A stretch of 64,000 bases of DNA from Spirochaetia bacterium. GTDB taxonomy: Bacteria > Spirochaetota > Spirochaetia > CAKZLE01. Positions 22,220-55,765 of the stretch are shown here, in pieces. The position numbers and the translations under genes are program-made. The notes beneath the pieces were generated by a model. The model ran no database searches. It was not told the DNA's origin and saw only the letters and a program-made list of their open reading frames with translations. The first letter of the stretch is position 1; the number at the start of each line of letters is the position of its first letter. The stretch covers positions 2,848,001 to 2,912,000 of the forward strand of contig OY782041.1 of NCBI GenBank assembly GCA_963677595.1, given 5' to 3'.

Positions 22220-23941
22220 CTACCCGACAGACAGGCCATGCCCTTGCCTCCGCCCTTTGAGCTCGTCCCTCACCAGCTTCGGGACGTCATCCCGCAGTTG
22301 TGAAGGCTTGACCACCTCAAAGATGTAGAACAGTTTCTGTACTTCAAGAGGCAGGTCGTCCCAGGAGCCTTCTGCGGGTACCTTCCCTGCCGGCTTTTTC
22401 AGCTTCGCATCGAAGACCTCATCTCGAAGGTCCTGAAACGTATACTGGTCATACAGGAGATATTCGTGCATGATTCGTCTGATGTGCAGCTCGAGTATCG
22501 TGGTCAGGAATGCAAGAAAGACCTTCCCTTCAAGATGCTCGTCGAGACTGTGGTTCGGTCTGTGCATCCTCGCCCTGTACCCCTCGTAAGCCTTCTCGAT
22601 GCGGTCCCTGCCGCGGGTCAGCTTCAGTACCTGCTCAGGTGAGAGCCCTGCAGGCCCGAGGTATCCTGAGAACCCACATGCGGTCATCCGTCTCCGCTGT
22701 GCCTCGTTGTTATGGGAGACAGAGATGATGTTCCCCTCACTGTCCTGTTCCACCGTATAATAGGTCCCATAGAATCCTGTCCCACTGTACAGACTCCCGT
22801 GCTCTTCCAGGTCAGCCTTGCCTCGGGCGAACCTCTCAGCTAACTGCTGCTGCTCTTCTGCCTGTCTGTCGGGGTGCAGGAACAGGTAGACAGAAAGGTC
22901 CCGGGAACCTGTTCCACGTACACTCGGAGTCTCGTTGGTGACCATCCTGGTATAGCAGTACATCCTGATCGCTGCATGGTAGTTCTCGGTATCAAAGATC
23001 ACCCCATGTGCTTCTTGAACGGCATCTTTGAACATCTTGGCAGCAGGCGGCAAGCCGGCCAGGAACCGGAGGTCCCCATCCTTTAGCAGCTGAATGGTAT
23101 CAAGGGAGTGGAACTCCCTGTCCAGTATCAGCGTGGTCCCCGCCTTGAACTCTTTCACATAGGGTCCGTTCAAGACGTTCCTGACTGAACAGTTCTCTAA
23201 CAGCGGCTGGTAATAGAGGGGAATACCGGTTAGCTTGTCGCAGATCATCAGGAGGTCGATCTGCGCATGGTCTGATCCCTCGTTATTCCTGCCATATTTC
23301 GCAGCTTCGAGCAGGGCTGAATACGTCGAGATCCTCCTCGTATCCAGGGGGTACACTACGATCTCCCCGGCAGTGCTCGCCCCCTGACGTGCATACAACC
23401 GCTCCTGATAATAACCGAAGAACCGTTCGATGGAAGCGGAGTCCACTGCGTCAAGGGCTTTCGCGATCCCATCCTCTGCAGGCGGGTCGACTAACGTATG
23501 CAGACAGACGTCATGGAAGTGTTTGGGACGGTACAGGTCACGGTCAGGGTAACTCATCATCGCTTCTACACAGGTGAGCAATTGTTTCCAGTCATTGGGG
23601 AAGACCCGCTTCAGAGCATCCCAGACGCCTGTCTTCTTTGCGGTGGTCTCGAGGAGTGCGACGAAACCATACATCTTGTATTCATGGGCATCGGTATCTC
23701 CCCGGGTGAAGAGCGCATAGCAGGGATCATCGACGAGACCGGTCTCCAGCTGCTCCTCAGGGGGAAGGGCGAGAAAGTTCTTGTTCGGTTCGAACGCTCC
23801 TGCTGCATTGATCCTGCCTATGCCTATCTTCGATACGACGGGATAGGGCTTGCCGGGGACATAGGTCGAGTGTCCCCAATAGAGGTATGTAATGCCGGAT
23901 TTCTTGTTCTTCTGCTTGATTACAACGTTTTTCCTATTCAT
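22220..23941 (-). CDS. Divergent IS1634/IS4-like DDE transposase homologue
   Basis: Similar architecture to the IS1634 transposase at 53808: YPLDTRRISTYS, ILDREFH, RDRIEKAY and LEGKVFLAFL. No convincing terminal repeats found. Confidence 0.7.
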   Translation of the reverse strand: MNRKNVVIKQKNKKSGITYLYWGHSTYVPGKPYPVVSKIGIGRINAAGAFEPNKNFLALPPEEQLETGLVDDPCYALFTRGDTDAHEYKMYGFVALLETTAKKTGVWDALKRVFPNDWKQLLTCVEAMMSYPDRDLYRPKHFHDVCLHTLVDPPAEDGIAKALDAVDSASIERFFGYYQERLYARQGASTAGEIVVYPLDTRRISTYSALLEAAKYGRNNEGSDHAQIDLLMICDKLTGIPLYYQPLLENCSVRNVLNGPYVKEFKAGTTLILDREFHSLDTIQLLKDGDLRFLAGLPPAAKMFKDAVQEAHGVIFDTENYHAAIRMYCYTRMVTNETPSVRGTGSRDLSVYLFLHPDRQAEEQQQLAERFARGKADLEEHGSLYSGTGFYGTYYTVEQDSEGNIISVSHNNEAQRRRMTACGFSGYLGPAGLSPEQVLKLTRGRDRIEKAYEGYRARMHRPNHSLDEHLEGKVFLAFLTTILELHIRRIMHEYLLYDQYTFQDLRDEVFDAKLKKPAGKVPAEGSWDDLPLEVQKLFYIFEVVKPSQLRDDVPKLVRDELKGRRQGHGLSVG

Positions 23942-30126: not shown

Positions 30127-30877
30127 TCAGGAGGTAATGGTGATACCCAGCTCTTCGCAGTAATCGATCAGGGACCGGTACTCACGCTCCGCGATGGCCT
30201 TCAAGATCTTTCTGTCGAGCTTCTGATACTCATGAATAGCGCTTCCGGAAGCCTGTCATCCCCATCATCGCCTTCGCTGTCTTGTGGGATATGACGCTAG
30301 CGTTCTCGAGAACAAGGAATGCGGCTGCACTGTTCTCCGGCATGCCGAGCCGCTGCACTGCCACAATATGCTGGGCAAGGTCAATGGCAGCCTGGCATGC
30401 ACGCTCGATGTTCAGGATCATAGCATCGATATGGGTATAGTTGTCTAACGAGGGATTCGCTGCATACGCTTCGAGTATTCGCCGTATTGATCGCTCTATC
30501 ACAGCTGCCTTGCTGATGCTGATATTATCGTTGTCAGTAGCTATCTTCAGGATCGCTGCACGTATACATGCCATGCGATCCTCGTCTTTCACATAGACAG
30601 CCATGCCTTTCAGCAGGGCCTCACGGGAATAGGCCAGGCTCGTGCTGATGATATCTCCCAGGTCAACTGTTCGTGCTAGATCAAACGAGAGGTCCCCGAT
30701 CCATCGCATCTTCTCTGTTGCCGGAATACTGATACCTTGCTCTGCCATCACAGCTAGATCTATATCACTGTCGGGTCGGAGATTCCCCGTGACTGCACTT
30801 CCGAGCACGAAGACCGCGAGTATATGCTCCTTTCCTGCAACATACCGGGATACGACTTCCCTGATCCTTTCTACCAT
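30127..30877 (-). pseudogene. MntA nucleotidyltransferase joined in frame to a HepT/DUF86 toxin that is frameshifted in its RX4H motif
   Basis: GSAVTG..RPDSDIDLA, then LNIERACQAAIDLA. After MTGFR the frame shifts near 30240 and continues AIHEYQKLDRKIL...TITS* to 30127. Confidence 0.75.
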
Positions 30878-31022: not shown

Positions 31023-31283
31023 CTATACACGCTGACTGGCGAGTGTTTTTCCCAATTCCCAGATATCATATCTATCTATATCAATCTCTTCATTCCAGGC
31101 AACGGCAAACCCGCTATCAATTACACGTACAGTGTTAAAGAACGTAACATTCTTGATAGGGCGAAACATCTCAAAGTCCTGAATATATGGGTGTACATCA
31201 AACTCTTTAATAGTACCATCCAGAAATTCTGTCTCAAGGTGAAAATCTGGTAGTGGAATAACTCGTTTAATTCTTGGAACCAT
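31023..31283 (-). CDS. DUF2442-family antitoxin-like protein
   Basis: IKRVIPLPDFHLETEFLDG..KEFDV and AVAWNEEIDID; RBS GGAGG. Confidence 0.8.
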   Translation of the reverse strand: MVPRIKRVIPLPDFHLETEFLDGTIKEFDVHPYIQDFEMFRPIKNVTFFNTVRVIDSGFAVAWNEEIDIDRYDIWELGKTLASQRV

Positions 31284-31293
31284 GTACTCCCTC

Positions 31294-31547
31294 CTACTGA
31301 TGAGGTGCGATCTTATTGAATATCTGGTCTTCCCAGATAGCCAGAAGTTCGGTTTTATGAAGATTCGCCCACTCTTTCACGAGAGTGAGAGCTCGAACAG
31401 GTAGATCACCGACGATTACGTCTAGTGACTGTATATCTATTTCAGCTATATATTCACCGTACAGCGCATGAAAGTGCGGAGGTGGTGTTCACTTTTCCGG
31501 AAATACATCTTTATGATGATTCCATAAAATCTGGATATTTCTGGCAT
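31294..31547 (-). pseudogene. DUF4160-family protein, frameshifted
   Basis: My translation: MPEISRFYGIIIKMYFRKSEH / 1-nt shift / PPHFHALYGEY...GDLPVRALTLVKEWANLHKTELLAIW. Confidence 0.8.
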
Positions 31548-31627
31548 TCCAACTTCTTTCGTATGGATGAATCATACCACATCATGGCAGTATTTCCAAA
31601 TACCCACCCGACAGAATCAAGGTAGTG

Positions 31628-31903
31628 AGCCTTCCCCACATTGCTCGATCAACTTCTGGAATTGCTCCCTTCCGGTGGTTCGTATTCCAGAGATCCCATG
31701 ATCAACAAACACACCGGCGAACACCCAACCGGGATGCTGCTAAAATGAACTGCGTGTAATACTGATCTGGTTTACAAGCGAATGCTCATAATCTCTCGAG
31801 ACACGGGCATAGGCGTGGAGTAGGGTGCACGTGTGGTAGGAAGTTCCACGATAGATGAGCCCCTTCCTGGACGTTTATGCGTCTTTTTACCTCTTTGTTT
31901 CAA
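31628..31903 (-). pseudogene. Remnant of a serine recombinase catalytic domain (older element)
   Basis: Fragments in shifting frames: AYARVSRDYEHSLVNQIS, QHPGWVFAGVFVDHGISG, QFQKLIEQC. Confidence 0.75.
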
Positions 31904-32019
31904 CTGTCATGACAATTCCCCAAAATTCTTGAATCAAATCCACCCAAATCATGTTTATAACTTATAGATAGATACAAGGAGGCATAAGCCATGAACAATC
32001 TGAATTCCATCATTCTCGA
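31816..32019 (+). repeat. 204-bp direct repeat, copy 1 (recombinase 5' end, intergenic region and first ~10 ssb codons)
   Basis: Matches 43647-43850 with 12 mismatches by my count; both copies end in ATGAACAATCTGAATTCCATCATTCTCGA. Confidence 0.95.
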
Positions 32020-32071
32020 CGTAAGAACAAGTAAATATTTACCAAATAACGAGTTAACTAGGTGTGGCTAA
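31991..32071 (+). pseudogene. Displaced ssb 5' fragment (MNNLNSIIL, then island sequence)
   Basis: First 29 nt identical to the start of ssb at 43822, then divergent up to a stop at 32071. Confidence 0.85.
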
Positions 32072-32454
32072 GCAAATTTTGGTGGTGGCTAGTAGGATTA
32101 TCTGATGCAACCTTTTGCCACAAACTCATGCTTTGCTTAGAGATAATAGGGTATAGGAAAATAACAGAAAAGGGTAGCGGCTAAGAAGTTTATGGGGATT
32201 TGCCACATCAAAACTCATACATCATTTATGAATGATATTGAATCTTGAGAATAAACTCTTTTGTAAGGCTAAATATAATGGGTAGTGGCTGAAACGAAGG
32301 AGTTATTGATATTGAGAGTACTGACAGGTTTGTTGGTGGATAACGAGTTTCTTGGATTGATTTCTTCATGAGGTTGTTATACTCTATCTGTAAATGAGTA
32401 AATAGTTCTATAACGTAACTCTTTATAAAGTGTATGGGATAAAGTGGGGGAACT

Positions 32455-35400
32455 ATGCTCAAAAGAACTCAAGTCGTATTTATCATACTGGTATTAGCTT
32501 ACATATTCAGCTCAATCAGTTGTGATCTACTAAACGGAATCTTAGATTCTACAGGAACAATAACTGGAAAGGTTACCTTTTCTAATAGTTCAGACCATGC
32601 AGGCATAGTTATCTCGTTAGAAAGTAAAGAAGGTGAGATCACAAAAAGTGTATCTCATGCTCTGCAGGGTGATACTAGATCCTTAACATCTCGATCTTTA
32701 TCCGATCAGACAACCACCAATTCAAATGGTGAATACCAATTTATCGATGTACCTGAAGGGGATTATACCCTGTATGCATCTTCCCAGGATTCATCAGAGA
32801 AAGCCGTCTATACCTCAATCCATATTGATAAAGGTAAAACAGTCACTGCCCCTGATCTGCAACTTACTTCTGTAGGGAGTATTCATGGAAGAATCGTGTT
32901 GGATGGAACAGCGACTGGGAATATTGGTTTTATAATTTTTATTGCTGATACTTCCTATATGGCAATTACAGGAAATGAAGGGAATTTTACCATATCTGAA
33001 GTTCCCTCTGGAAATGATTATGATCTTGTTATTATGCGAGGTACAGATACTTATAGTTGGGATAATGTATCCGTATCTGCGGGCTCCATAACAGAACTGG
33101 GAACAAAATACTTATTATCAGAAGATTTTCCTGGAAGTATTACTATCGCATGGCAGGGTTCACTGGATGCTCCCCCGGTTAACCCTGAACTCTATTGGGC
33201 ATACTACAATATGACTGATGGTGTCTCATATCTCTATACGGGAAATGGTGAGTGGCAAGTCCTCGCGCAAAATGGTGAAGACGGATCTGCTGGTGAGACA
33301 GGAGCTGCCGGAGCAGACGGGATCTCGATTATCTGGAAAGGTGGATATGCTAATGTGGCAGATATGTTGGCCGCATTAGGGGTAACCAAGCCAGAAGAGA
33401 ATTGGGCATACTACAACAGCACAGATGGGATTTCGTATATCTATGATGGATCAGACTGGAACATCCTTGCCCAGGATGGATCAGATGGAGCAGATGCTAT
33501 ATCGATCATATGGCTGGGAGAGTACAGTAGTGCACCGAGTGGAGCAAGCCTGAACAATGCCTACTATAACACCTCAAATGGTAATTCTTACATCTACAAC
33601 GGTAGTTACTGGGATCTGTTGGCACAGGCAGGATCAGATGGTGCTGATGGAGAGACAGGGGCAACGGGGGCAGCAGGAGCTGACGGTATCTCGATCATCT
33701 GGAAGGGAGAGTTGACTGAAGCGCCGAGCAGTCCTGAGGTTAACTGGGCATACTACAACAGCACAGATGGGATTTCGTATATCTATAATGGATCAGATTG
33801 GAATATCCTGGCGCAGGATGGAGCCGATGGAAGTGATGGAGTTGATGGTGCAGATGGTGCAGATGGTGTATCAATCGTCTGGCTGGGCGAGTATAGCAGT
33901 GCGCCAAGTGGAGCAAGCCTGAACAATGCCTACTACAACACCAGTGATGGGAACTCATATATCTATAATGGCAGTAGCTGGGACTTGCTGGCAGCGGCAG
34001 GTGCAGATGGAGTTGATGGTGCTACAGGTGCAGATGGGGCGGACGGGATCTCGATTATCTGGAAGGGCGAGCTTACGGAAGCGCCGATCAGTCCTGAGGT
34101 TAACTGGGCATACTACAACAGTACCGTCGGAATCTCCTATACCTACGATGGAAGTCAGTGGAATATCCTGGCCCAGGACGGATCAGACGGAGCGGATGCG
34201 ATATCGATCGTATGGTTGGGAGAGTTTAGCAGTGAGCCGAGCGGGGCAAGCCTGAACAATACCTACTACAACACGAGTGATGGAAATTCCTATATCTATA
34301 ACGGAAGCAGCTGGGACCTGTTGGCAGCGGCAGGGGCAGACGGAGCTGACGGTGAGACAGGGGCAGCCGGTGCGGACGGGATCTCGATCATCTGGAAGGG
34401 AGAGTTGTCTGATGCACCGAGTGACCCTACAAATAATTGGGCATATTATAATATAGTTGATGGTATTTCTTATATTTATGATGGATCAGACTGGAACATT
34501 CTGGCCCAGGACGGATCAGACGGAGTGGATGCGATATCGATCGTATGGCTGGGAGAATCCAGTAGTGCACCGAGTGGATCGAGCCTAAATAATGCGTACT
34601 ACAATACGAGTGATGGGAATTCATATATCTACAATGGCAGCGACTGGGACCTGCTGGCAGCGGCAGGGGCAGATGGGGCTGATGGGGAGACTGGAGCAAG
34701 TGGAACCGATGGAATATCAATTATCTGGAAGGGAGAACTTTCTTCAGCACCGAATAGTCCTGGAGTTAATTGGGCTTACTATAATAGTTCTGATAAAAAG
34801 GCTTGGATATGGAGTAATAACTCTTGGAATTTATTAGTTAATGATGGGAATTCATTATTGTATATTTCTTTTTATAATAATAATGCTACTAGTGGATATT
34901 TACCTGAAACTATTTTTGGATATGAAGGAGATCAATATGGAGTACCCCAAAATTCAAGAGGATTAGAAAAAGTGGGGTATTCTTTCTCAGGTTGGAATTC
35001 TAAATCTGATGGATCTGGAGATGATTATATATTAGGATCATACTATATGTTTAGTAATGAGTCATTAAGACTTTATGCACAATGGACTCCAAATAACTAT
35101 AAAATCTATTTAAATGTCCAAGGTGGGGATCTCCTTGAAAATGATTCTTTGGTAGTTACTTATGATTCGTTTTATGGAGACCTACCAACTCCTACAAGAG
35201 CTGGATACAATTTTGATACATGGTGGATTGATACCGAAATTACATCTACAACCATTGTTAAAATACCATATAATCATGTTATTGACGCTCATTGGATACC
35301 TAGAACTGATACAAAGTATCTAGTTGAACATTATCAACAGGATGTGAGTGGGGATGGATATACCTTGGTTGATTCTGACATCCTGACCGGTACGACAGAA

Positions 35401-37035
35401 GCTACAGCAACAGCTGAAGTAAAGGCATACACTGGGTTTCATGAAAATCCAATCCATGAATTGCGAGTGTCTAGTGGGGAAATAAGAGGAAATGGATCTC
35501 TTGTTTTGAAACTTTATTATGATAGAGATAACTTTACCGTAAGTTTTAAAAGTAATTGTAACAGTATTGTTGATGATATTGAAGGTGTGAGATATCAGGC
35601 AACAATAAGTGAACCAGAGTTACTAACAAAAATTGGATATACTTTTAACTATTGGTATAAAGATATTTTTTCTTGGACCCCCTTTAATTTTTCATCAGCT
35701 CAAATAACTAGCGATCTTATATTAACTGCTAATTGGTCCGCAAATACTGATACTCAATATAAAGTAGAACATTACCAACAAGACATTTCTGGACCTGGGT
35801 ATACATTATTTGAGACAGAATATTTAACAGGTACAACCGATAGTGAAGCGCTGGCATACTCGAAATTCTATTATTATTTTAGAAATACTAATGATGATAT
35901 ATCCATCTACCGTAGTAACATTTATGGCGATGGGAGTTTAGTCCTGAAGATATATTATTACCGTAACACTTATACAATTAGTTATAATAGCAATGGTGGT
36001 TCTATTATTGAGGATATGGAAGCACGGTATGATTCCACACTGAATGAACCAATTCCTACAAGAGAAGGGTATACATTTTCTGGTTGGTTTAAAGATGATG
36101 ATCTGACTACAACTTGGGATTTTAGTAGTGAAAAGATAGAAAGAGATATTTCTTTATATGCCAAATGGACTGCAGATGAACATACTTTGTATTTATTACC
36201 AAATGGTGGAATTGGTACAATGGATTCAATTACTATTAAAACTAATGAGAAAATACAGTTGCCAATTTGTAGATATACTCAAGAAGAATTTGGTTTTTAT
36301 GGCTGGTCTGAGACAAGTCAAGGTGAAGTCGATTATAGTGATGAAGGATTCTTTACAATGGGACCTACTGATGCTGAACTATATGCAATTTGGGGACCCT
36401 TTGCAGTAGGTTTTAGAGGTCAAGCTGGCGGATATATTTTCTATGATGATGAAGCCGATGGTGTTGATAATATACCTGGTTATCGTTTTCTGGAATTAGC
36501 TCCTTTTGGGTGGTATGACACCGATGGGGATGGAGAATATTGGGAAGATCCTGACCCTAGACTTTTTCAATGGGGAGTTAATGGGTATTATATAACACCA
36601 AATGGAACAGCACCTGAAATTGGTGCTGGCTTGACTAATACTATAAATATTGTAAATTTTCATAATAATTTAGGGACAGAAGGTTATATTGGATATGATG
36701 AAGGTTGGGGTAGTTTCTACGAAAATCCACAAAACTATTTTAGAATGAATGATGGGAGTGTAATTGCTAAAATATGTACTGATGCCGTAATTAATGGGTA
36801 TGATGATTGGTATTTACCTTCAATAGATGAATTAAAAGAAGTATCAAAACAATTATACTCAAATGGAAAAGATAATTTTGTAGAGCTATGGTATCGATCT
36901 TCAACAGAAAATTCTACCACAACTGTAAAGTCAATATGGATGGAATATGATGTCATAAATGAATATACCGAATTGTCTCATGGCATGTTTAAGTATTTTG
37001 ATCTTTACCCATTTCGACCAATTAGATATTTTTAA
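32455..37035 (+). CDS. 1526-aa surface lipoprotein: carboxypeptidase-regulatory-like N-terminus, 10 Trp/Tyr repeats with collagen-like linkers, InlB-B/Flg_new repeats, DUF1566/C-lectin-like C-terminus
   Basis: Lipobox-like FSSISC; repeats ISIxWxGE...YYNxxDGxSYIYxGSxW; PTREGYTFSGWF..LYAKW; GYDDWYLPSIDEL and a terminal RPIRYF. Confidence 0.85.
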   Translation: MLKRTQVVFIILVLAYIFSSISCDLLNGILDSTGTITGKVTFSNSSDHAGIVISLESKEGEITKSVSHALQGDTRSLTSRSLSDQTTTNSNGEYQFIDVPEGDYTLYASSQDSSEKAVYTSIHIDKGKTVTAPDLQLTSVGSIHGRIVLDGTATGNIGFIIFIADTSYMAITGNEGNFTISEVPSGNDYDLVIMRGTDTYSWDNVSVSAGSITELGTKYLLSEDFPGSITIAWQGSLDAPPVNPELYWAYYNMTDGVSYLYTGNGEWQVLAQNGEDGSAGETGAAGADGISIIWKGGYANVADMLAALGVTKPEENWAYYNSTDGISYIYDGSDWNILAQDGSDGADAISIIWLGEYSSAPSGASLNNAYYNTSNGNSYIYNGSYWDLLAQAGSDGADGETGATGAAGADGISIIWKGELTEAPSSPEVNWAYYNSTDGISYIYNGSDWNILAQDGADGSDGVDGADGADGVSIVWLGEYSSAPSGASLNNAYYNTSDGNSYIYNGSSWDLLAAAGADGVDGATGADGADGISIIWKGELTEAPISPEVNWAYYNSTVGISYTYDGSQWNILAQDGSDGADAISIVWLGEFSSEPSGASLNNTYYNTSDGNSYIYNGSSWDLLAAAGADGADGETGAAGADGISIIWKGELSDAPSDPTNNWAYYNIVDGISYIYDGSDWNILAQDGSDGVDAISIVWLGESSSAPSGSSLNNAYYNTSDGNSYIYNGSDWDLLAAAGADGADGETGASGTDGISIIWKGELSSAPNSPGVNWAYYNSSDKKAWIWSNNSWNLLVNDGNSLLYISFYNNNATSGYLPETIFGYEGDQYGVPQNSRGLEKVGYSFSGWNSKSDGSGDDYILGSYYMFSNESLRLYAQWTPNNYKIYLNVQGGDLLENDSLVVTYDSFYGDLPTPTRAGYNFDTWWIDTEITSTTIVKIPYNHVIDAHWIPRTDTKYLVEHYQQDVSGDGYTLVDSDILTGTTEATATAEVKAYTGFHENPIHELRVSSGEIRGNGSLVLKLYYDRDNFTVSFKSNCNSIVDDIEGVRYQATISEPELLTKIGYTFNYWYKDIFSWTPFNFSSAQITSDLILTANWSANTDTQYKVEHYQQDISGPGYTLFETEYLTGTTDSEALAYSKFYYYFRNTNDDISIYRSNIYGDGSLVLKIYYYRNTYTISYNSNGGSIIEDMEARYDSTLNEPIPTREGYTFSGWFKDDDLTTTWDFSSEKIERDISLYAKWTADEHTLYLLPNGGIGTMDSITIKTNEKIQLPICRYTQEEFGFYGWSETSQGEVDYSDEGFFTMGPTDAELYAIWGPFAVGFRGQAGGYIFYDDEADGVDNIPGYRFLELAPFGWYDTDGDGEYWEDPDPRLFQWGVNGYYITPNGTAPEIGAGLTNTINIVNFHNNLGTEGYIGYDEGWGSFYENPQNYFRMNDGSVIAKICTDAVINGYDDWYLPSIDELKEVSKQLYSNGKDNFVELWYRSSTENSTTTVKSIWMEYDVINEYTELSHGMFKYFDLYPFRPIRYF
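33139..34850 (+). repeat. Intragenic array of 10 alternating A/B units (~150-190 bp each)
   Basis: Alternation of WKGE..NWAYYN and WLGE..LNNAYYN units separated by Gly-X-Y runs of variable length. Confidence 0.9.
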
Positions 37036-37069
37036 CATCAAAAAAAGTTTAGAGTGATAATCATCAGCC

Positions 37070-37228
37070 GAGACTGGAAACTTAACTGTGTAACTGCCTA
37101 TTCCCATCAATCTACAATCCTATCTTCATATTCGGTGAAGAAACCGATTCATCGCTGGACCCCAATCCCTGATTGGCATGGTCCAGCGCCGTGAGGCCTG
37201 CTGAACAGCCAAATACACGATCTTCAAA
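37070..37228 (-). mobile_element. IS256-family remnant (transposase C-terminus and terminal repeat)
   Basis: LKIVYLAVQQASRRWTMPIRDWGPAMNRF is a typical IS256 C-terminus; IS256-like end GAGACTGGAAACTTAACTGTGTAA at 37070. Confidence 0.75.
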
Positions 37229-37237
37229 GTTGGTGTG

Positions 37238-37390
37238 TCATGATCTATTCCACCTACTATCAACATAACACTTACGGCAGCAGTATTTTCGACCTTTCCC
37301 GTAAGCGATGAATGTCTTACCGCAATGCTGGCATACAACGCTATAGGTAGCTCGTTCAACTCCTGATTTCAACTGCCCGAATCGGTTCCA
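37238..37390 (-). pseudogene. Separated C-terminal Zn-finger tail of recombinase B
   Basis: WNRFGQLKSGVERATYSVVCQHCGKTFIAYGKGRKYCCRKCYVDSRWNRS* continues in frame from ...CRQDW once 37396-40883 is removed. Confidence 0.85.
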
Positions 37391-37702
37391 CCAATTATTG
37401 ATCTCCACATTAAATTAAAGCAAAACTGACGAATAGTTTTAGCAAGAAAAAACCGTAACATGGCATGACTGCTTGTGTATGAAATATTGCCTCCAGCTGA
37501 GAAGAAGCGCCCATACCAAGGAATCCACCATGCATCTGCAAAGACTTTCTTAGAATTAATCACACATGAGTTTCATAGAATTATTCTACGTAGACATTTC
37601 AACAATCATGTAGGATGAACAACCGATTCGGCAATTGTTTGAACACAGCTCCCACCGGTAGTAGGAGCTGCTGAAGGGCGAGTAATCGGGTCGTTGTGAG
37701 TA

Positions 37703-38059
37703 TCAGCTGGAGAAGTCGAATTCCTGCTGGATTGGTGAATCAGCGGTGGTTGTATCTGTCAACCACAGATGGGGGACGATCACTTGGCAAATCTGAGTGA
37801 ATAGCCTGCTGAGTGAATCGTCAAGTGTGGAGAAATAGGAACGATACAGCCAATGCAGCCCTTCAGGGATTCCTGTAACATGCAGGAGCTGATCCTCAAG
37901 TTCAAGAAATGCTACGGACAGCTGTTCCAGGGTTTCTATGGTACGGGAAACAGTCCTGTAGGCGGCTCTATCATCCTGTTCAAGCGTAGTAAGGAGCTGC
38001 TCAAGATCAAAGCCCTGTGTAGATGGAACGATCACGGTATTCATCAGCATTGCCACCAC
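37703..38059 (-). CDS. Hypothetical protein (transposon ORF4)
   Basis: 118-aa ORF overlapping the end of the ATPase gene, same strand. Confidence 0.55.
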   Translation of the reverse strand: MVAMLMNTVIVPSTQGFDLEQLLTTLEQDDRAAYRTVSRTIETLEQLSVAFLELEDQLLHVTGIPEGLHWLYRSYFSTLDDSLSRLFTQICQVIVPHLWLTDTTTADSPIQQEFDFSS

Positions 38060-38865
38060 TCCTTTGTCACGATCCGAATTACCTCAGGGGTAATGACCTG
38101 CAATTTCTCATCCATGCCATGTTTCAGGGCTAGTAAGCAGATGGTATTGATGTTTCGCGGGATACCGCCTGAAGCCTGGGTAACGGCAATTACTGCTTGG
38201 GAAGAGAACAAGTCCTCCTGTCCTCCGGCAACTGTGGTCATGTGGTGTTTGACATACTCAATACATTCCTGCTGAGACATGCTCCGAAGATTATATCCAT
38301 TCATGACCCGATTCATCAGTGGCCTGGCATAGGGATTGCGCAGCTTGTCGAACAGGGTATCCTGCCCACACATGACGATGGGCAGGATTCTGCTGTCATT
38401 GGGATTCTGCTGGCAGAGGAGATGGAGTTGCGAGTAGACACTCGGCTTGAATAGGTCGCACTCATCGATGAACAGCACCGGGCTTCGGCCATCGGCACGA
38501 ATCTGAGAAAAAGCCTCATAAAGCTGCTTGAGCATGGTCGTCTGCTGGTTCGTTCGTGCCGAGATCCCGACGGCATGCATGCATTGCCTGAGCATCTCCG
38601 TGAAGCTCCAGGAGCCGCCACAGATGTGGATGACCTGGTACTGCTTCTTTGACAGCTGACTGATGGTATACCGCAGGGCTGTGGACTTTCCAGACCCTAT
38701 CTCACCGATGATCGCGAAGATCATGGCATGAGCGATAGCGAAGACACAGCGCTCACTGATCTCGATCATGGAGGTAACGGTATACAGCTGATCAACCGGC
38801 ATGTGGCTGGCAAAGGGCTGACGCTGGAAACCATAGTAGGTCTTGATGTCATGATTCTTATTCAT
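38044..38865 (-). CDS. ExeA-like AAA+ ATPase (IstB/TnsC/MuB-type transposition helper)
   Basis: YYGFQRQPF, GEIGSGKST, VLFIDE and SGGIPRNIN. Confidence 0.9.
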   Translation of the reverse strand: MNKNHDIKTYYGFQRQPFASHMPVDQLYTVTSMIEISERCVFAIAHAMIFAIIGEIGSGKSTALRYTISQLSKKQYQVIHICGGSWSFTEMLRQCMHAVGISARTNQQTTMLKQLYEAFSQIRADGRSPVLFIDECDLFKPSVYSQLHLLCQQNPNDSRILPIVMCGQDTLFDKLRNPYARPLMNRVMNGYNLRSMSQQECIEYVKHHMTTVAGGQEDLFSSQAVIAVTQASGGIPRNINTICLLALKHGMDEKLQVITPEVIRIVTKEWWQC

Positions 38866-40145
38866 CGCACACCTCCGGTGGTGGCTGCCGGCAGCTCTTG
38901 ACGGTGCGCCTGTGAATTAGCAATCTGATCACAGAGCGGAAGGAATCCAAGAGAGGTATCTTCATAGAAGGCTTCTACATGTGCCGGGTCAGAGAATCGA
39001 AGATCGAGGGTGAGGCCAGCATAGCCGAGGGGAACCTCATACAGATGATTGTTAAGACTAACCGTTCGTGCTAAGGACACTTTCCTCTTCACGTGAGACC
39101 GGAAATAAGGCAGCATCTCTGGTGGAGCAGGTCTCACGGCCTCGATCTCCTGAAGATACACCTGTAAAGGGCTATCCTGGATGCCTGAATGAAATCTTCG
39201 ATTGTACTGCTGCAGGTAGGTCATCCAGGCTTTGTTGAGCTCATAGAGCGAGATAGGGGACGTGCCGATCGTCGGGAGAAACTGCATGCGAACCGTTGAG
39301 AAGAATCGCTCGATTTTTGCCTTCGATGCCGGCGAGTACGGTTTCGCGAAAGATAGCTGAACCTGCAGAGATGCCAATCCAAGTTTCAGTCGGTGGTCTC
39401 TCATGGCCGAACCGTGGTCCGTGAAGATCTTACGGGGTAACCCCCGTGCGGAAAAGGCTTTGATAACGCAGTCGATCAGGCTCTCTGCTTTTTCGTCTGG
39501 ATAGAACTGGGCATAGGTAATGAGCCGGCTCTTGTCGTCAATGAGCGCCCACAGCTTTGCGGAGATCGTTTTCTCCCCTCCGGCGACCATGATGGTGACC
39601 TTTGGACCATTCATCGCATCCAGCATCCAACAGTCGTTGCAGCTGGCCATGCTGAATCGCCGCATGTCTTTCGTCCGTTTTGCCGTTTGATCCCGATCAT
39701 AGGATTTGAACATCCGATAGATCACTGACATCTTCACCGTTTCATGGGGAAGGAAGATCCCTTCTTTGATCGCCATCGCTACCAATGTCGTGAGCTTTAC
39801 CTCGGGATGCTGATCACGGAAATGCCGCAAAGCTACTTCCGTCTCACTGCTTACGCTTCGATGATGCCCCTTGTCTTCGCGAGATGCAGGATACAGATCT
39901 TCGATCTCTTGATGCTGGCTATACCGTCGAAGCCAGTTATACACCGTCGCTTTGCTGATGCGAGTCCTCTCGGAGAAGGGAATCTCATACGATTCTGCAC
40001 AGATCTTCTCGACGATCTGGCTCTTCTCTCCCCATTGCAGACGCTCATCGAGCAAGGGGAAGATAATGCCGAATCGAAACAATGCGATCTTCTCTTGTTT
40101 CATCCTGTCCATGGTTACCTCCTGATAGTTGGTTAGGTATCTCAC
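38862..40145 (-). CDS. DDE integrase-like transposase with HTH and Mu-type C-terminus
   Basis: IALFRFGII, CWMLD, LIDDKSR, FTDHGS, SKAKIERFF, YNRRFHS and RKVSLARTVSL. Confidence 0.92.
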   Translation of the reverse strand: MRYLTNYQEVTMDRMKQEKIALFRFGIIFPLLDERLQWGEKSQIVEKICAESYEIPFSERTRISKATVYNWLRRYSQHQEIEDLYPASREDKGHHRSVSSETEVALRHFRDQHPEVKLTTLVAMAIKEGIFLPHETVKMSVIYRMFKSYDRDQTAKRTKDMRRFSMASCNDCWMLDAMNGPKVTIMVAGGEKTISAKLWALIDDKSRLITYAQFYPDEKAESLIDCVIKAFSARGLPRKIFTDHGSAMRDHRLKLGLASLQVQLSFAKPYSPASKAKIERFFSTVRMQFLPTIGTSPISLYELNKAWMTYLQQYNRRFHSGIQDSPLQVYLQEIEAVRPAPPEMLPYFRSHVKRKVSLARTVSLNNHLYEVPLGYAGLTLDLRFSDPAHVEAFYEDTSLGFLPLCDQIANSQAHRQELPAATTGGVR

Positions 40146-40723
40146 AGCCTATCGTAGTCACCGGAAGATATGCAGAACAGAAACTGGTAGGCAGCCCCCG
40201 GAGGTTTGAAGGTTCGCACCTCCATAACCCCCTGAAGCGGCTTGGTGACCATTCGAATGGAGAGAGGAGCCGTGATACAGGATCTTGGGCAGGAGAGCTC
40301 CTGCAGGTCGAATCCCTTCAGGTGGTACAGGTTCTCCTTAATACTTGCTCGTTTGATCAGGTGATCTCTCCACTGTCGTTGAAGCGTCTTGTTGATGGGG
40401 ATGTGGTTCCCCATATGTCCGGTTTCACACGCTGCAGAGAGTACGGCTAAGATGGTTTCAAGGCTATAATTCTTGAATACATGTACCCAGATGGGCAGTA
40501 ATGTAAAGGTGAGAAAACACTTAGGGCACCGTTTCCTATGGATCCAGAAGCAGTACTCCTGTTTCTCGAGATCAACGAGGAAACGAAGCCTCCAGCCATG
40601 ACCATGCAGGATCGTGCCACAGCAGGGGCAAGTCATACTGGGCATGATACCTACATCTGGAGGATCAGAACAGGGATTCTGGACTTGAACTTTTTCGAAA
40701 TCTACGTCAATCTGGATGAGCAT
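40142..40723 (-). CDS. Zn-finger protein, DUF6431-like (transposon ORF1)
   Basis: CPCC..LHGHGWRLR and RKRCPKC..TFTLLP; coupled to the transposase gene. Confidence 0.7.
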   Translation of the reverse strand: MLIQIDVDFEKVQVQNPCSDPPDVGIMPSMTCPCCGTILHGHGWRLRFLVDLEKQEYCFWIHRKRCPKCFLTFTLLPIWVHVFKNYSLETILAVLSAACETGHMGNHIPINKTLQRQWRDHLIKRASIKENLYHLKGFDLQELSCPRSCITAPLSIRMVTKPLQGVMEVRTFKPPGAAYQFLFCISSGDYDRL

Positions 40724-40878
40724 TTATTGCATGTGAGGAGAAGCGCACATCTTTCCAGGGACGGTGCTTCTCCTCTTTCCTTTTTACGAGAGTTCCTCTA
40801 TTTTACCACAGATTATTCGCTCTAAGAGATTGTGTGATTTTCTAGCTTATTTTTACTAAGATAAGTTACAGGTTAATA

Positions 40879-42744
40879 CCAATCCTGTCGGCACCCATCA
40901 GAGCAGAAGATCTTCTTTCTATAGCCTGGGGTATGCACAAGAGGCTTCCCGCATGTTTTGCAATACCCCGATTCTCCTTGTTGGGAAGTTGTGTTCTGGT
41001 CTGATGTCCTGGATAAACAATACGATCGAACCTGCCCCTGCGTGAGGTTCATGCGGGATGCGATCTTGTTATACGATATGCCTTCTCTGCGGAATTCAGC
41101 GATTTTCTTTTTCTGGCGAACGGTGAGGGCAGGGAGTTTCTTTTCTATTGCAGCCTTATCCACTGTGATAATTGAACCATCACAGAAATGGAATCGCACA
41201 TCATGTGGAGAGTAGACCGTGATAAAATCCAGTAATGCATTCCAAAGATCAGAGTTGAATGTGGTTATGGGTTCCTTAGAATTCTGCAACTCATCATAAA
41301 ACTGGGTGGCTACATGTTTCTTCTCTACCTTATCTGCAATAGCTTTTTCTAACTTTTGAAGTCGTTTGGAATCTTTCTTGAATCGTTGCTGGAGAACCTG
41401 ATACTCTCCCTCAGATGCTGTGGGTGTTTCAGACTCTTCTGATTCTGCTGCTTCTCGGGCCGCCATGGTTTGCATCAACTCTGTTGTGACAGCTAGGTCT
41501 ACTTGCATTTGATCACGTTCTCTTTCAAGAGCAGATGTATCGAATAGCAGTTCATAGGTGAGTTTCTGGGTTTCGAGAATCGTTGGGGCGCTCTTGAGAA
41601 CTCGGTTCACGGCGATCACGAACATGCTCATGATATCCCGTTCAGTTACGTTCCCTGAAGTGCATGGTGCATGGGATGCATCGTACTTGCCATTACATTG
41701 CCAGAGGATCTTCTGACTGCCGGTATGTGGATGCCAGGTTTTCTTCCCAAACCATGAACCGCATTGACCGCATTTTACTTTCCCCGATAGCAGTCGTTCA
41801 CGATTATGTCGTCCTATCAATCCTTTCCGTCGTTCGAGTTCTGATTGGACGAGTTCGTATATGTCCTTGCTGATAATCGGCGTATGATTTTTCTCTACAT
41901 AGTATTGCGGGACTTCCCCTTCGTTATCTTTCAACTTATGGGTGAGAAAATCCACCGTGAACTTCTTCTGCAGCAGTGCATCGCCAATATATTTTTCATT
42001 CTGGAGAATTCGGGTAACACAGCCATCGTTCCAGGTTGTTTTCTTCCCCGGGGTAGGGATTCCCTGTTCGGTGAGTTTCACTGCAATCGAGGAAGGTGCG
42101 ATACCTTGGAGAAACAGGGAGTAGATAAGCCTCACCGTCTCAGCTTGTTCTTCATTGATCACGAACTCTCCGTTCGGTCCTCGATCGTATCCAAGGAATT
42201 GACCATATGCGACACTGACCTTACCGGCTTTTGCAAGTTTCCGCTTACTCCAGGTGACGTTCTCTGAAATCGATCGGCTTTCTTCCTGAGCGATAGAGCT
42301 CATGATCGTGATCAGCAGTTCTCCCTTTCCATCGAATGTCCAAATATTTTCCTTCTCGAAGAAACACTCAACGTGGTTCTTTTTCAGTTTTCGGATGGTG
42401 GTAAGGCTGTCTACCGTGTTTCTAGCAAATCTACTAACTGACTTCGTGACGATCAGGTCAATCTTACCGGCTAGGGCATCCGCTACCATCTGTTTGAAGC
42501 CCTCTCGATGGGTTGTAGTGGTGCCGCTGATCCCTTCATCAGTATAGACCTGTACGAATTCCCAATCTTGACGGCTCTTGATGTAGTGTGTGTAGTAGTC
42601 AATCTGTGCCTTATAACTCGAGAGCTGTTCATCATGATCAGTTGATACCCGGGCGTATCCGGCAACACGTCGTATATGGGTTCTCCTCCCGGTATCCCTC
42701 GCATTGATGTTTTTGGTTGCTGGTATGGTTCTAATGGTTGGCAT
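40879..42744 (-). pseudogene. Large serine recombinase B with C-terminal HTH and Zn fingers, interrupted near its 3' end
   Basis: VAGYARVST, DEGISG, KSVSRFARN, AQEESRSISEN, Zn ribbon CGQC, coiled coil, then HTH (GISYNKIASRMNLTQGQVRSYC) and CKTC...FCSDGC. Confidence 0.9.
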
Positions 42745-43734
42745 GAGGTTTCTCCTTGGCTTGGTGTGTACTTGCGGCTATTCGAGCTCGATGCTTTGCA
42801 TCCCAGAACTGGGTATGAGTTCGTCCATTCGTGAAATGGAAGGTAAAGGTCCCATCACCGCTTCCGGTGATATGATCCACTTCTCTCGTGAAGGCATCTT
42901 CGTTAAACGCTTCATGTTTCATCTCGAAGGCTGAGAGCTGTTTTAATTGCTCTTCGTTGATCCCGATGCTCCTACAGCCCGTTGGTCCATATTTTTTGTT
43001 TGATGCACATCGCCAGTTTGCATTGGTGGGTGTCTTGTAAATCCTGATATACTTCCTGCCGCATTTCTCGCAGCTGATCTTCCCGGTAAAACACCGTTTG
43101 ACCATCTTCGGCATGATGAATACGCCGAGCTCTTTTCGTCTCGTTATCTCTGCAGCTACGGCATCAAAGGTCTCTCGACTGACAATCGCCGTATGGGTAT
43201 CTGATATATAGTGCATTGGGAATTCCCCTGTATTCTTTTTGCGCTTATGCTTCATGAAATCCGCACAGTAGGTTTTCTGGAGTAGGGTATCCCCGATATA
43301 TCGTTCATTGTGGAGGATGGTGTGGATTGCGACATCATTGAAGGGTTTTTCGAAGTGATCTACTTCCCGCTTATTCAGATCATCTGAGATCCTTTTCATC
43401 GATTTCCCTTTCAGGTAGTGCTTGAATATGCTTCGTACTACCCGTGCCGGTTTCGGATCTATGACCAGCTTCTTACCATTCCAGCGATATCCATAGACTC
43501 GATGGTTCAAGCTGATTCCCTGCTCATATTTCTTCCTCACTGCCCATCTGAGGTTCTCAGATATACTCCTGCTTTCCTCTTGGGCGAAGGTCCCGAGTAT
43601 GGTGACCATGAGCTCATGAGACAGGGGCATAGACAGCAACTTGAAATGGAGTAGGGTGCGCGTGTTGTGGGAAGTCCTACGATAGATGAGCCCCTTCCTG
43701 GACGTTTATGCGTCTTTTTGCCTCTTTGTTTCAA
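42731..43734 (-). pseudogene. Large serine recombinase A with the catalytic domain largely deleted
   Basis: 5' part MKQRGK...RAPYSI/QVAVYAPVS* joins directly to ELMVTILGTFAQEESRSISEN; recombinase and Zn-ribbon domains remain. Confidence 0.85.
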
Positions 43735-43850
43735 CTGTCATGACAAATACCTCGGATTCTTGAATCAAATCCACCCAAATCATGTTTATAACTTATAGAT
43801 AGATACAAGGAGGCATAAGCCATGAACAATCTGAATTCCATCATTCTCGA
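43647..43850 (+). repeat. 204-bp direct repeat, copy 2 (provides the ssb upstream region, RBS and first codons)
   Basis: Matches 31816-32019. Confidence 0.95.
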
Positions 43851-44226
43851 GGGGAACCTGGTGCGAGACCCAGAGCTCAAGATGACCCAGAGCGGGACCA
43901 ATGTCTGCAGAATGCAGATCGCCACGAACCGGTACTACCGGAAGGGCGAGGAGCAGGTCAAGGAGGTCATGTATCTCTGTGTCGAAGCCTGGGCGAACAC
44001 GGCCCTAATCTGCCAGGAGTACCTGGGCAAGGGGAGCTGGGTGCGTGCCGTGGGGAGGCTCCGACAGGATCGGTGGAAGAACCAGGAGGGACAGAACCGG
44101 GAACGGTATGTCCTGGTCGCCGAGCATGTGGAGTTCCGCTCTCCCCTGAGGAAGCAGGAGGAGGAGGGGACCCCCGAGAGTGTCGCTGCTGAGGCGCAGA
44201 AGGTCCTCTCCCCTGAGAAGGGCTGA
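43822..44226 (+). CDS. ssb: Single-stranded DNA-binding protein (short, no DDDIPF tip)
   Basis: LNSIILEGNLVRDPEL, KGSWVRAVGRLRQDRW OB-fold motifs; RBS AGGAGG. Confidence 0.93.
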   Translation: MNNLNSIILEGNLVRDPELKMTQSGTNVCRMQIATNRYYRKGEEQVKEVMYLCVEAWANTALICQEYLGKGSWVRAVGRLRQDRWKNQEGQNRERYVLVAEHVEFRSPLRKQEEEGTPESVAAEAQKVLSPEKG

Positions 44227-53510: not shown

Positions 53511-53807
53511 CGGCCTGTCAGCCCTCGAAGGTCGTGAGCACATCCTTGAGCAGTCGTATGATCGGCAGGTGCTGGGGACAGAGTCCCTCGCACTGGCCGC
53601 ATTCGATGCAGAGGGAGGCGTTCCCGGCTTTCGAGAGCACGAACCGGTAGGAGTTCCTTAACTTCTTGTACTTTTATTACTCAAACCACTTTTTCGCGAC
53701 AAGCCAATACATAAATCTTTAAAATATAAGGAGAAATAAACGGTTTTCAGTTGAATTCCAGGCCCAGGTCTGCTATACTTAAGGTATAAAGTATTACTCA
53801 ATGCGAG

Positions 53808-55544
53808 GTGAATATCATGTACCTAAAGACCCTGGTTGACCTGCCGGATGTCCCCGGTAAAATCGTGATTCAGACGAAGAATAATTCGTCCTACGTGCAC
53901 TTCGAATACGATCGGATCTATGATGCTGACAGGAAGTTCAATGTCCCCAAGCGGGTTGTCATCGGCAAGATTGCTGGCAACGATAAGCACAAAATGTATC
54001 CGAATCCAAATTTCCTGAAGTACTTTCCTGCCGTTGATGTTTCGCCCAGTCGTACGACTGATCCAGACCGAAGCTGCTGCCTAAAGATCGGTTCCTGGTT
54101 GGCGATCCGCAGCATCATCGAGCACTATGGGATCGAGAAGACCCTCAACCCCATCATCGACAAGGATACCGGGTTCTTCCTGGACCTTGCCGCATATTCC
54201 CTGATCAGTGAGAACAATGCCGGTCAGTACTATCCTGACTATGCTTATTGCCATCCGTTGTTTACCAACGCCATGCATATCTACAGCGACTCGAAGGTCT
54301 CAGACTTCCTTACCAACATGCCTGAGCACTGGAGTGTGGAGTTCCTGAATGCGTGGAATGCACGTAGGGATCACCGAGAACGGATCTACATCTCCTACGA
54401 TTCCACGAACAAGAATTGCCAGGCCGGGGACATCGAGATCGTCGAGTTTGGGCATCCAAAGGATGAACAGGGGCTTCCCGTTTTCAATTATTCGATTGCC
54501 TATGACAAGACGAACCAGGTCCCCTTGTTCTATGAGGAGTATCCCGGCAGTATCGTAGATGTCTCACAGCTCCAATTCATGCTGGAGAAAGCACTCAGCT
54601 ATGGATACCGGCATTGCGGGTTCATACTTGACCGAGGATACTTCTCCAAGGCGAACATCCAGTACATGGACGCCTGCGGCTATGAGTTCGTCATCATGGT
54701 CAAGGGCATGAAGGACCTCGTCTCCGGCTTGGTACTGGAGCATCAGGGGAGCTTTGAGACTGACCGGAGATGTTTCATTCGTGGGCACCGGGTGTATGGG
54801 AAGACCATCAAGGCACCGCTGTACGCTGATGATACACGAGAGCGGTATTTCCACATCTTCCATTCCTCAACGCTTGAATGCAGCCAGAGAGGCAAGCTTG
54901 AGGCTAAGCTGGAGCGGATGGAGAAGAGTCTCCTCAAGCATCGGGGACAGGCGATCACGTTCCCGAAATCGTACTCCCAGTATTATGAGCTCTATTTCAA
55001 TGAGCAGGAGGGATCAGCCAAGACCCTGGTCCACTGGCGGGAACGGAACGATGTGATCCAGCGGGAATTATCTCTGTGCGGCTACTTTGCTATCGTCACC
55101 TCAGAGCAGATGACGACTCAGGAGGCGATGGATCTCTATCGGAGCAGAGATGCTTCGGAGAAGCTGTTCAGAAGCGACAAAACCTTTTTGGGCAACAAGA
55201 GCCTGCGTGTCCATTCCGACCAGGCTGCGGATGCCAAGGTGTTCATCGGGTTTGTCGCTCTCATCATACGCAATCGTCTCTACAACCTGCTTAAGGATGC
55301 GATGGCGCGGATGGAAAAGAGGCCAAACTACATGACGGTCCCGGCGGCAATCAAGGAGTTGGACAAGATCGAGATGGTACGCCAGTTTGACGGCATCTAC
55401 CGGCTCGATCATGCCGTAACGAAGACCCAGAAAGTGATCCTGGAGGCCCTAGGCTTAGATCCTGCCTCGGTACAGACTACAGCTCAATCCATTAGTGGGA
55501 TATTGGCTGCAACAGACACATCTGACAAACAGGAGGAATCGTGA
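53808..55544 (+). CDS. IS1634-family transposase
   Basis: ISYDSTN, ILDRGYFS, YRSRDASEKLF and KVFIGFVALIIR. Confidence 0.92.
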   Translation: MNIMYLKTLVDLPDVPGKIVIQTKNNSSYVHFEYDRIYDADRKFNVPKRVVIGKIAGNDKHKMYPNPNFLKYFPAVDVSPSRTTDPDRSCCLKIGSWLAIRSIIEHYGIEKTLNPIIDKDTGFFLDLAAYSLISENNAGQYYPDYAYCHPLFTNAMHIYSDSKVSDFLTNMPEHWSVEFLNAWNARRDHRERIYISYDSTNKNCQAGDIEIVEFGHPKDEQGLPVFNYSIAYDKTNQVPLFYEEYPGSIVDVSQLQFMLEKALSYGYRHCGFILDRGYFSKANIQYMDACGYEFVIMVKGMKDLVSGLVLEHQGSFETDRRCFIRGHRVYGKTIKAPLYADDTRERYFHIFHSSTLECSQRGKLEAKLERMEKSLLKHRGQAITFPKSYSQYYELYFNEQEGSAKTLVHWRERNDVIQRELSLCGYFAIVTSEQMTTQEAMDLYRSRDASEKLFRSDKTFLGNKSLRVHSDQAADAKVFIGFVALIIRNRLYNLLKDAMARMEKRPNYMTVPAAIKELDKIEMVRQFDGIYRLDHAVTKTQKVILEALGLDPASVQTTAQSISGILAATDTSDKQEES

Positions 55545-55765
55545 TGGCACGCACAAGGACGATGGCATCGGTTGATGCAAAGGTCAAGAAGGCCCAAGAT
55601 GCAGTGGAACAAACAAAAGACCGGTATGATGCTGCCGTAACTGAACTGGAACGATGGTACGAAGAGAAGAAGAACCTTCAGCTGCAGGAACTTGCCCAGG
55701 CGCTCAACAAGAGTGATAAGAGTTTTGAAGACGTGATGCGATTCATCAAGGATGGTACCCGCTGA
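55541..55765 (+). CDS. Small coiled-coil passenger protein within the IS
   Basis: RBS GGAGG, overlaps the transposase stop, ends inside the right IR boundary. Confidence 0.75.
   Translation: MMARTRTMASVDAKVKKAQDAVEQTKDRYDAAVTELERWYEEKKNLQLQELAQALNKSDKSFEDVMRFIKDGTR

Follow-up and report, generated by a model that had tools for sequence, protein, structure and literature searches.

An insertion site for serine-recombinase elements in codon 10 of a second spirochaete ssb gene, and the possible origin of a duplicated gene start

A direct repeat of 204 nt in a spirochaete chromosome, each copy of which joins the beginning of a serine recombinase gene to the upstream region and first ten codons of ssb, raises the question of how a gene start comes to be duplicated at a place where mobile elements insert. 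The repeat lies in a stretch of 64,000 nt (hereafter, the window) of Spirochaetia bacterium, assembly GCA_963677595.1, whose genome is represented by a single contig of 4.33 Mb. An initial annotation of this stretch proposed that an element family targets ssb, provides a substitute upstream region and start, regenerates gene and target, and stacks in tandem. The feature proves to be real and its target correct, and the mechanism proposed earlier is partly wrong. In what follows, recA and recB are our own labels for the two recombinase genes of the window, recA being the long serine recombinase.

The repeat and its target in ssb

The repeat, which occurs as two copies and no others in the genome, was confirmed to carry 12 mismatches and to end at a GA dinucleotide within codon 10 of ssb, while some 20 nt of further similarity are found beyond its left edge, across an 11-nt gap (Table 1). 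The mismatches are unevenly spread (Fisher p = 5e-4): none falls in the 95 nt that comprise the ssb promoter, ribosome-binding site (RBS) and codons (31925-32019 being identical to 43756-43850), six fall in a patch of nine positions (31916-31924; patch scan p = 24/200000), and six in the 100 positions on the recB side. Five of the latter six had been read as synonymous, and in the minus-strand frame then used this count holds; however, one of the five (31889) sits where the alignment corresponds to non-coding DNA upstream of recB in a congener (G001), and in neither repeat copy is the frame in phase with the catalytic motif.

Occupied sites were sought with a pattern consisting of the ssb start followed by anything but Glu-Gly. 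Among GTDB genomes it returned 21 matches, of which all 15 from spirochaetes continue into one of three conserved element ends and the remaining six belong to unrelated taxa, and 20 of 28 matches in metagenomes likewise continue into one of these ends. Because this pattern favours occupied sites, close homologues of RecA were searched for independently in 201 genomes of the family that contains the Sphaerochaetaceae. Ten were found in nine genomes; nine are full-length (62-63%), and the tenth runs off its contig (54%). Every one of them has a codon-10 junction at a distance of 0.6-2.8 kb, with the ssb start as the joined partner in nine cases and a P arm, i.e., the element arm that precedes the 3' part of ssb, in one. 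This bears out the claim that the family targets ssb. In a quick tree the window RecA falls, with a support of 100, in a set of 17 rows made up of all 11 ssb-site rows and six database proteins of unknown context. No ssb arm was seen at more distant RecA homologues (up to ~56% over most of their length) in the loci examined, many of them with flanks limited to 1.5 kb, and neither ssb nor its arms were present in any of the 80 viral loci examined, out of 130 with RecA relatives (45-61% identity). Eighteen viral matches to the ssb-start pattern (L258-L275) are unsplit at the GA and have no recombinase match; most of these contigs read on like genes of the second-ssb-paralogue type.

Empty sites, which the initial annotation had proposed to look for in related genomes, do exist: in a single assembly (G403) one allele is occupied and another empty, the two being 98-99% identical over the 10 kb upstream and diverging after the GA. 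The locus therefore has the 2-bp core, with occupied and empty alleles, of a large serine recombinase (LSR) site. Among 24 pairs of arms tested for dyads (p values uncorrected), the P arm of the congener forms a GA-centred inverted repeat with its own left end (15/25, p = 0.001) and with the left end of the window element (14/25, p = 0.004), whereas the ssb 5' arm of the window (B arm) forms none with the element end (5/25), and the Sphaerochaetaceae P arm none with any of the element left ends (P' arms) tested. As far as sequence comparison can tell, the GA in codon 10 of the second ssb is evidently a genuine serine-recombinase insertion site. Use of secondary sites is suggested by one locus (L138:6635-7090, in G412), where a cassette left end is joined inside a dipeptide-epimerase-like open reading frame (ORF).

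Prophages and small cassettes at the site in relatives

Insertion in relatives splits the gene: the ssb start comes to adjoin a conserved element end (attL), and the remainder of ssb a different arm (attR). In four of these genomes (G001, G412, G471 and G477) the recombinase pair lies near attL and is preceded by a gene for a helix-turn-helix (HTH) zinc-finger protein and a prophage body that includes genes for terminase, portal and capsid, while close to the opposite end, next to the P arm, there is a 342-aa recombinase that lacks a zinc ribbon; the two halves of ssb are 74-88 kb apart on one contig in the latter three genomes, and on different contigs in G001. The HTH-zinc-finger gene stands upstream of recB at nine of the ten close RecA homologues, the tenth being cut by a contig end, and the prophage body comes next after it in those genomes that were mapped through. 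The expectation that the recombinases would always be divergent from ssb is thereby contradicted.

The same GA also receives small cassettes of 3-8 kb that carry the short recombinase and are stacked in tandem (G001, G408, G477 and G492), in agreement with the proposal that the locus accumulates elements. The P arm of these cassettes was found in 17 of the 201 genomes. At four loci (L031:742-14084 in G001, L131, L345 and L350) each stacked cassette ends in the 342-aa recombinase, and two of the cassette copies in G001 have near-identical recombinases and different cargo. Around the site, tandem copies of whole ssb or of its 3' half, some of them broken, were also observed (L133, L158, L336-337, L341, L343-344).

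Regeneration of ssb and of the target had been proposed as a property of the element. In the genome of the window the gene is indeed whole again, but relatives usually leave it split, as in the six genomes with prophages or small cassettes named above. The P arm of the Sphaerochaetaceae supplies an in-frame TTG, and a full-length ssb frame results in 13 of 17 cases; that of the congener is one base shorter and gives no in-frame start, so restoration of ssb is not a fixed trait of the P arm.

The possibility of two unrelated element families at the site was considered and dropped, since a separate right end for the prophage with the recombinase pair was sought in G412, G471 and G477 and not found; a single three-recombinase system, accompanied by small cassettes, would better describe the locus. 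At one further locus (L426; G492:C2 794-806 kb) the HTH gene and recombinase pair are followed ~7 kb downstream by a short recombinase (59%), at a site without ssb arms, and the three-recombinase layout thus appears to serve other targets too.

Decay in the window and possible origin of the duplicated ssb start

The features of the window locus are collected in Table 1. Both recB copies are broken and recA is interrupted by an insertion sequence (IS); of the resolvase, recombinase and zinc-ribbon domains that are present in RecA and in intact RecB homologues, the window RecB keeps the last two. The left end of the element resembles all five of the family-I ends tested (0-12 of 2000 shuffles scoring as high) and shows no likeness to the cassette-type end (233 of 2000). 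A whole-genome search revealed no short third recombinase, no phage replication or head-tail genes were found between 32020 and 43850, and a search of the interval from pyrH to the left repeat gave neither an element end nor a promoter copy.

Table 1. Features of the ssb locus, in window coordinates
Feature	Position	Strand	Remarks
MntA/HepT (type VII toxin-antitoxin) fused ORF	30230..30877	-	Pfam Polbeta and HepT-like; NCBIfam HepT and MntA above cut-off; left-hand accessory DNA
DUF2442 gene and frameshifted partner	31023..31547	-	
Relic of the left recB, comprising the promoter region and some 100-120 initial codons; interrupted by stops and an 11-nt gap	31545..31915	-	tblastn with residues 23-119 of an intact 427-aa RecB
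Left copy of the 204-bp repeat	31816..32019	+	
Host-type ssb promoter region (predicted), RBS (31977-31982) and codons 1-10 (B arm); attL-type junction with GA core (32018-32019)	31925..32019	+	Resembles the region in the congener and in an island-free relative
Element left end (P' arm)	32020..32090	+	Same family as ends that follow codon 10 of ssb in other spirochaetes
Cargo gene for a 1526-aa protein with Listeria-Bacteroides and collagen-like repeats	32455..37035	+	40% GC versus 57-59% in flanks
Severed C-terminal zinc-finger tail of recA	37238..37395	-	Matches end of intact 671-aa P0001, the closest relative (91%)
IS of ~3.5 kb in recA (DUF6431, DDE transposase, AAA ATPase)	37396..40877	-	6-bp target duplication (37390-37395 / 40878-40883)
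recA, encoding a large serine recombinase (resolvase, recombinase and zinc-ribbon domains) whose C-terminal extension the IS interrupts	40878..42744	-	
recB pseudogene and upstream region	42731..43746	-	~105 codons of catalytic domain deleted at ~43616
Right copy of the 204-bp repeat, ending in intact empty attB (GA 43849-43850)	43647..43850	+	
Second ssb paralogue, 134 aa, intact, without acidic tail	43822..44226	+	Thioredoxin gene next, as in relatives

The other ssb of this genome, with an acidic tail, lies in an rpsF-ssb-rpsR context (C1:3723497). By analogy with SsbB, the second, tail-less protein may act in natural transformation, a role on which a literature search yielded nothing relevant; homologues of dprA and comEC are present in the genome, the comEC-family match being free of internal stops.

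Whose promoter it is that has been duplicated can be judged from relatives. The 91 nt before the ssb start resemble those at the attL of the congener and those of an island-free relative, G003 (0 of 2000 shuffles as high in each case), while G005, of the same family, is not significantly similar (317 of 2000). The initial annotation, which had the element supply a substitute upstream region, had itself named island-free relatives with the same upstream sequence as a finding that would tell against this; the likeness to G003 is of this kind, and the idea is not supported as a trait of the family. The right half of the repeat is evidently DNA of the host lineage rather than the attP arm of the family. 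A sigma-70 consensus scan at the right copy found no site, so the promoter calls rest on conservation, and promoter function of the region 31925-32019 is predicted.

Duplicates of the host promoter and ssb start occur in at least nine other genomes, in several forms. Six promoter-plus-start copies are present in G402 and two each in G451 and G392; the congener and G016 have one extra degenerate promoter copy each, 2.6 and 3.6 kb upstream, respectively; G538 runs from attL to a truncated recombinase, ~800 nt of other DNA, a diverged promoter and an intact ssb; and in G482, G535 and G338 the promoter is duplicated along with whole ssb. Furthermore, remnants of the short-recombinase end are fused to host promoter DNA at nine of the 132 ssb starts with enough flank (a set that includes non-spirochaete and viral matches and close kin), with about six breakpoints and 115-946 nt to the ssb start. 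A recB gene beside the ssb promoter was encountered in no examined genome but that of the window. The arrays of G402 (L425/L126/L127), G451 (L428) and G392 (L430), which belong to another genus, are free of recombinases and hold toxin-antitoxin, defence-like and efflux cargo, the names in G402 coming from a reading of the ORFs. Four of the ten copies in these arrays carry a variant arm, in which the ssb promoter and six codons are followed by a different last 11 nt before the junction, and an AAA-ATPase-like module has the functional ssb start at its end in G392 and an internal position in G402 and G451. Dyad tests on the junctions of these arrays gave weak results.

We incline, without great assurance, to the reading that a family of Phi1207.3-like prophages inserts at the second ssb and that the window holds two decayed insertions whose right ends were replaced by host DNA. 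A prophage would enter the GA of codon 10 and split ssb, with the recombinase pair near attL and the short third recombinase beside attR. Recombination with an intact ssb allele, from a sister chromosome or from the DNA of a relative, would then repair the gene; anchored in the 3' side of ssb, with its other end illegitimate or in recB homology, it would remove the phage body, the third recombinase and the attR arm. As a result, ssb and an empty target would be restored, the left-end cargo would be fixed in place and the recombinase genes would be free to decay. A second element would have entered the restored site and been trimmed likewise, in register with the older recB scar. Since such repair restores the target and leaves the cargo, the locus would work as a cargo trap upstream of ssb. 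The return of the host start is the step that we infer, and repair is favoured because it explains why breakpoints and the amount of host DNA vary among relatives, why 95 identical nt adjoin recB ends that have diverged, and why the recombinases are dead. Both of its ingredients are on record, the homology-anchored illegitimate join as a known model for such displacement arrays (PMC5361080) and the curing of prophages by transformation (PMC12637031). If the repair reading is true, it would amount to a partial chromosomal curing that keeps phage cargo.

Several observations weigh against repair. The register in which recB meets the ssb promoter is shared by the two copies, and the junction preserves two -35-like boxes, one per strand and 12 nt apart, which gives it a streamlined rather than a random look. 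For arrays that hold as many as six copies of the promoter and start, have no trace of a recombinase and share modules whose rank changes from genome to genome, mobile cassettes are the simpler explanation. In addition, homology-facilitated illegitimate recombination is reported to be rare (PMC5361080), and natural transformation would have to be assumed for this organism. The 9-nt patch, finally, may be host-like on the left and element-like on the right, a weak idea that stems from resemblances of 4 nt.

These difficulties are what a self-regenerating mobile cassette, a tentative alternative that comes near the model of the initial annotation, would address. Aberrant excision would once have captured the host ssb promoter and first ten codons, giving a circle of the composition P'-cargo-recA-recB-promoter-B, and this circle would integrate at the empty site by the recombinases or RecA, restore ssb each time and stack, its recombinase-free versions forming integron-like arrays. 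The shared junction of the two copies, the conserved promoter boxes on either side of a diverged spacer and the synonymous bias in the recB 5' frame are in keeping with such a unit, as are the recombinase-free copies in G402, G451 and G392, the occurrence of the variant arm in them and the second promoter copy upstream of ssb in the congener and G016; the cassette reading is the better one for the shared register and for the arrays in which modules change rank. On the other hand, the B arm is no dyad partner of the element end, among the genomes examined only that of the window pairs recB with the ssb promoter, neither copy of recB is still functional, the promoter that would have been captured belongs in every case to the host lineage, the absence of any difference in 95 nt is hard to obtain from two elements that are 6% apart, and the variant arm was never seen on the terminal ssb (0/4 genomes). 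In its widest form, which we regard as possible and somewhat doubtful, the second ssb would be an integron-like cassette trap: cassettes ending in a captured host promoter and start would be integrated at the attL-type site by prophage-derived serine recombinases and would rebuild ssb and target, the window harbouring the only autonomous (recombinase-bearing) form seen. If true, this would be a serine-recombinase analogue of the integron, built on a host gene start. Repair and cassette lead to the same outcome, with ssb whole, the target free and cargo building up upstream.

Unlikely, by comparison, is local tandem duplication with unequal crossing-over in one chromosome lineage, followed by gene conversion and decay, with no second invasion. 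Tandem copies of whole ssb in G535, G482 and G338 lend it some plausibility and the identical 95 nt would fit conversion, but the clustering and third-position bias of the mismatches are unexpected from neutral drift, and no duplicated cargo or recA remnant is present on the left. An assembly artefact, which the contamination estimate of 6.3% might bring to mind, is very unlikely given the single contig, the 12 differences and distinct lesions of the two copies, and a left junction that matches element ends of other genomes.

Some further observations concern the surroundings. Two segments at the end of the cargo gene have matches elsewhere in the genome, namely 37071-37128 (58 nt, 97%) at C1:2224926-2224983 and 36638-36841 (204 nt, 67%) at C1:2203676-2203879. 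The frameshifted partner of the DUF2442 gene is presumably DUF4160-like, and Pfam returned nothing for its first 24 aa. Inverted repeats of 29 nt, 2.1 kb apart, bound what is likely an IS at 53656-55810, and an ORF of 573 aa at 22220-23941 is one that we take to resemble IS1634-type transposases. In window positions 1-30123, 32 kb of genes with host GC content (an ABC transporter, a V-type ATPase operon and a TRAP transporter) separate pyrH from the ssb array; the corresponding gap measures ~2 kb in G003 and 11 kb in G001, and the pyrH-ssb interval is therefore itself variable.

Comparison with known systems

The closest known counterparts are streptococcal. Phage Phi1207.3 has three serine recombinases, of which one (370 aa, no zinc ribbon) lies at one end and the other two (412 and 521 aa) in tandem at the opposite end, and occupies a GA site in comEC, where the small defective element Tn1207.1, with the short recombinase, is also found (PMC4260502). 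The spirochaete relatives share with Phi1207.3 and Phi10394.4 the tandem pair at one end, the short zinc-ribbon-less recombinase at the other and a GA core in a coding gene. Matches to phi-SsuHCJ31_comEC (MN270268.1) extend to terminase (65%), portal (65%), capsid (54%), DNA polymerase (63%), helicase (59%) and SAM synthetase (46%), while the window RecA corresponds to the distal member of its recombinase pair at 44% and intact RecB to the proximal member at 40%. On these values, of 46-65% for the proteins and 40-44% for the pair, the relatives are Phi1207.3-like phages with another target. They differ in that their target is codon 10 of ssb rather than comEC, in that RecA carries a C-terminal HTH/zinc-finger extension, and in that the short recombinase points outward to the att arm, whereas it points inward in MN270268.1; this recombinase is no closer to the orf2-like protein of MN270268.1 (38%) than to the pair (39%). 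The window itself retains the tandem pair, decayed, and the GA core, and has neither a third recombinase nor phage genes nor an insertion in comEC; lacking phage body and third recombinase, it is to be regarded as a derivative and not as a prophage, and a duplication of the host promoter such as it displays is not described for Phi1207.3 in the available text. Triplets of serine integrases are also known from streptococcal integrative and conjugative elements (PMC4701971). The occurrence of the short zinc-ribbon-less recombinase alone on small stacking cassettes is of interest for how the three enzymes of Phi1207.3-like phages share their tasks. The relatives also provide a concrete attB and a set of intact three-recombinase modules from spirochaetes, for which few integrases have been described.

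The initial annotation recognised no described element that targets ssb. Such targets are in print: prophages occupy attB-ssbB in Streptococcus mitis and S. pneumoniae (PMC12637031, PMC12378983), and the survey of LSR targets by Durrant et al. (PMC10083194) lists Pfam SSB for 7 of 1069 target clusters versus 0 of 908 random ones (p = 0.013, false discovery rate 0.065), as a table row, 'ssb' being absent from the main text. What stands of the claim concerns the spirochaete site: the terms Sphaerochaeta and Spirochaet are absent from eight supplement files of that survey, and the literature search, which left subscription papers and bioRxiv supplements outside its scope, found no account of the site or of promoter-duplicating accretion. 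As in the streptococcal ssbB prophages, it is a second, non-essential ssb paralogue that is disrupted, though in another phylum, and the role of SsbB in transformation, shown in streptococci, is extended to the spirochaete by analogy. The pattern of prophages that hit DNA-uptake and recombination genes is thereby extended to a new phylum.

With regard to stacking, the locus recalls the composite staphylococcal cassette chromosome (SCC) elements, with their CcrA/CcrB recombinases, and the ssrA islands of Dehalococcoides, both of which form tandem stacks (PMC12648241, PMC3146451): in all of them accretion takes place in tandem at one LSR site and includes integrase-less modules, and a two-gene recombinase operon is a shared trait. 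The recombinases are nevertheless not of the SCC type, as they reach 60-130 bits with the NCBIfam Ccr models, whose cut-offs are 700-900, and the target is codon 10 of ssb instead of the 3' end of rlmH. Above all, the unit that is repeated at the spirochaete locus is a host promoter with the 5' end of its gene, whereas in SCC elements and ssrA islands it is a direct repeat of the 3' end.

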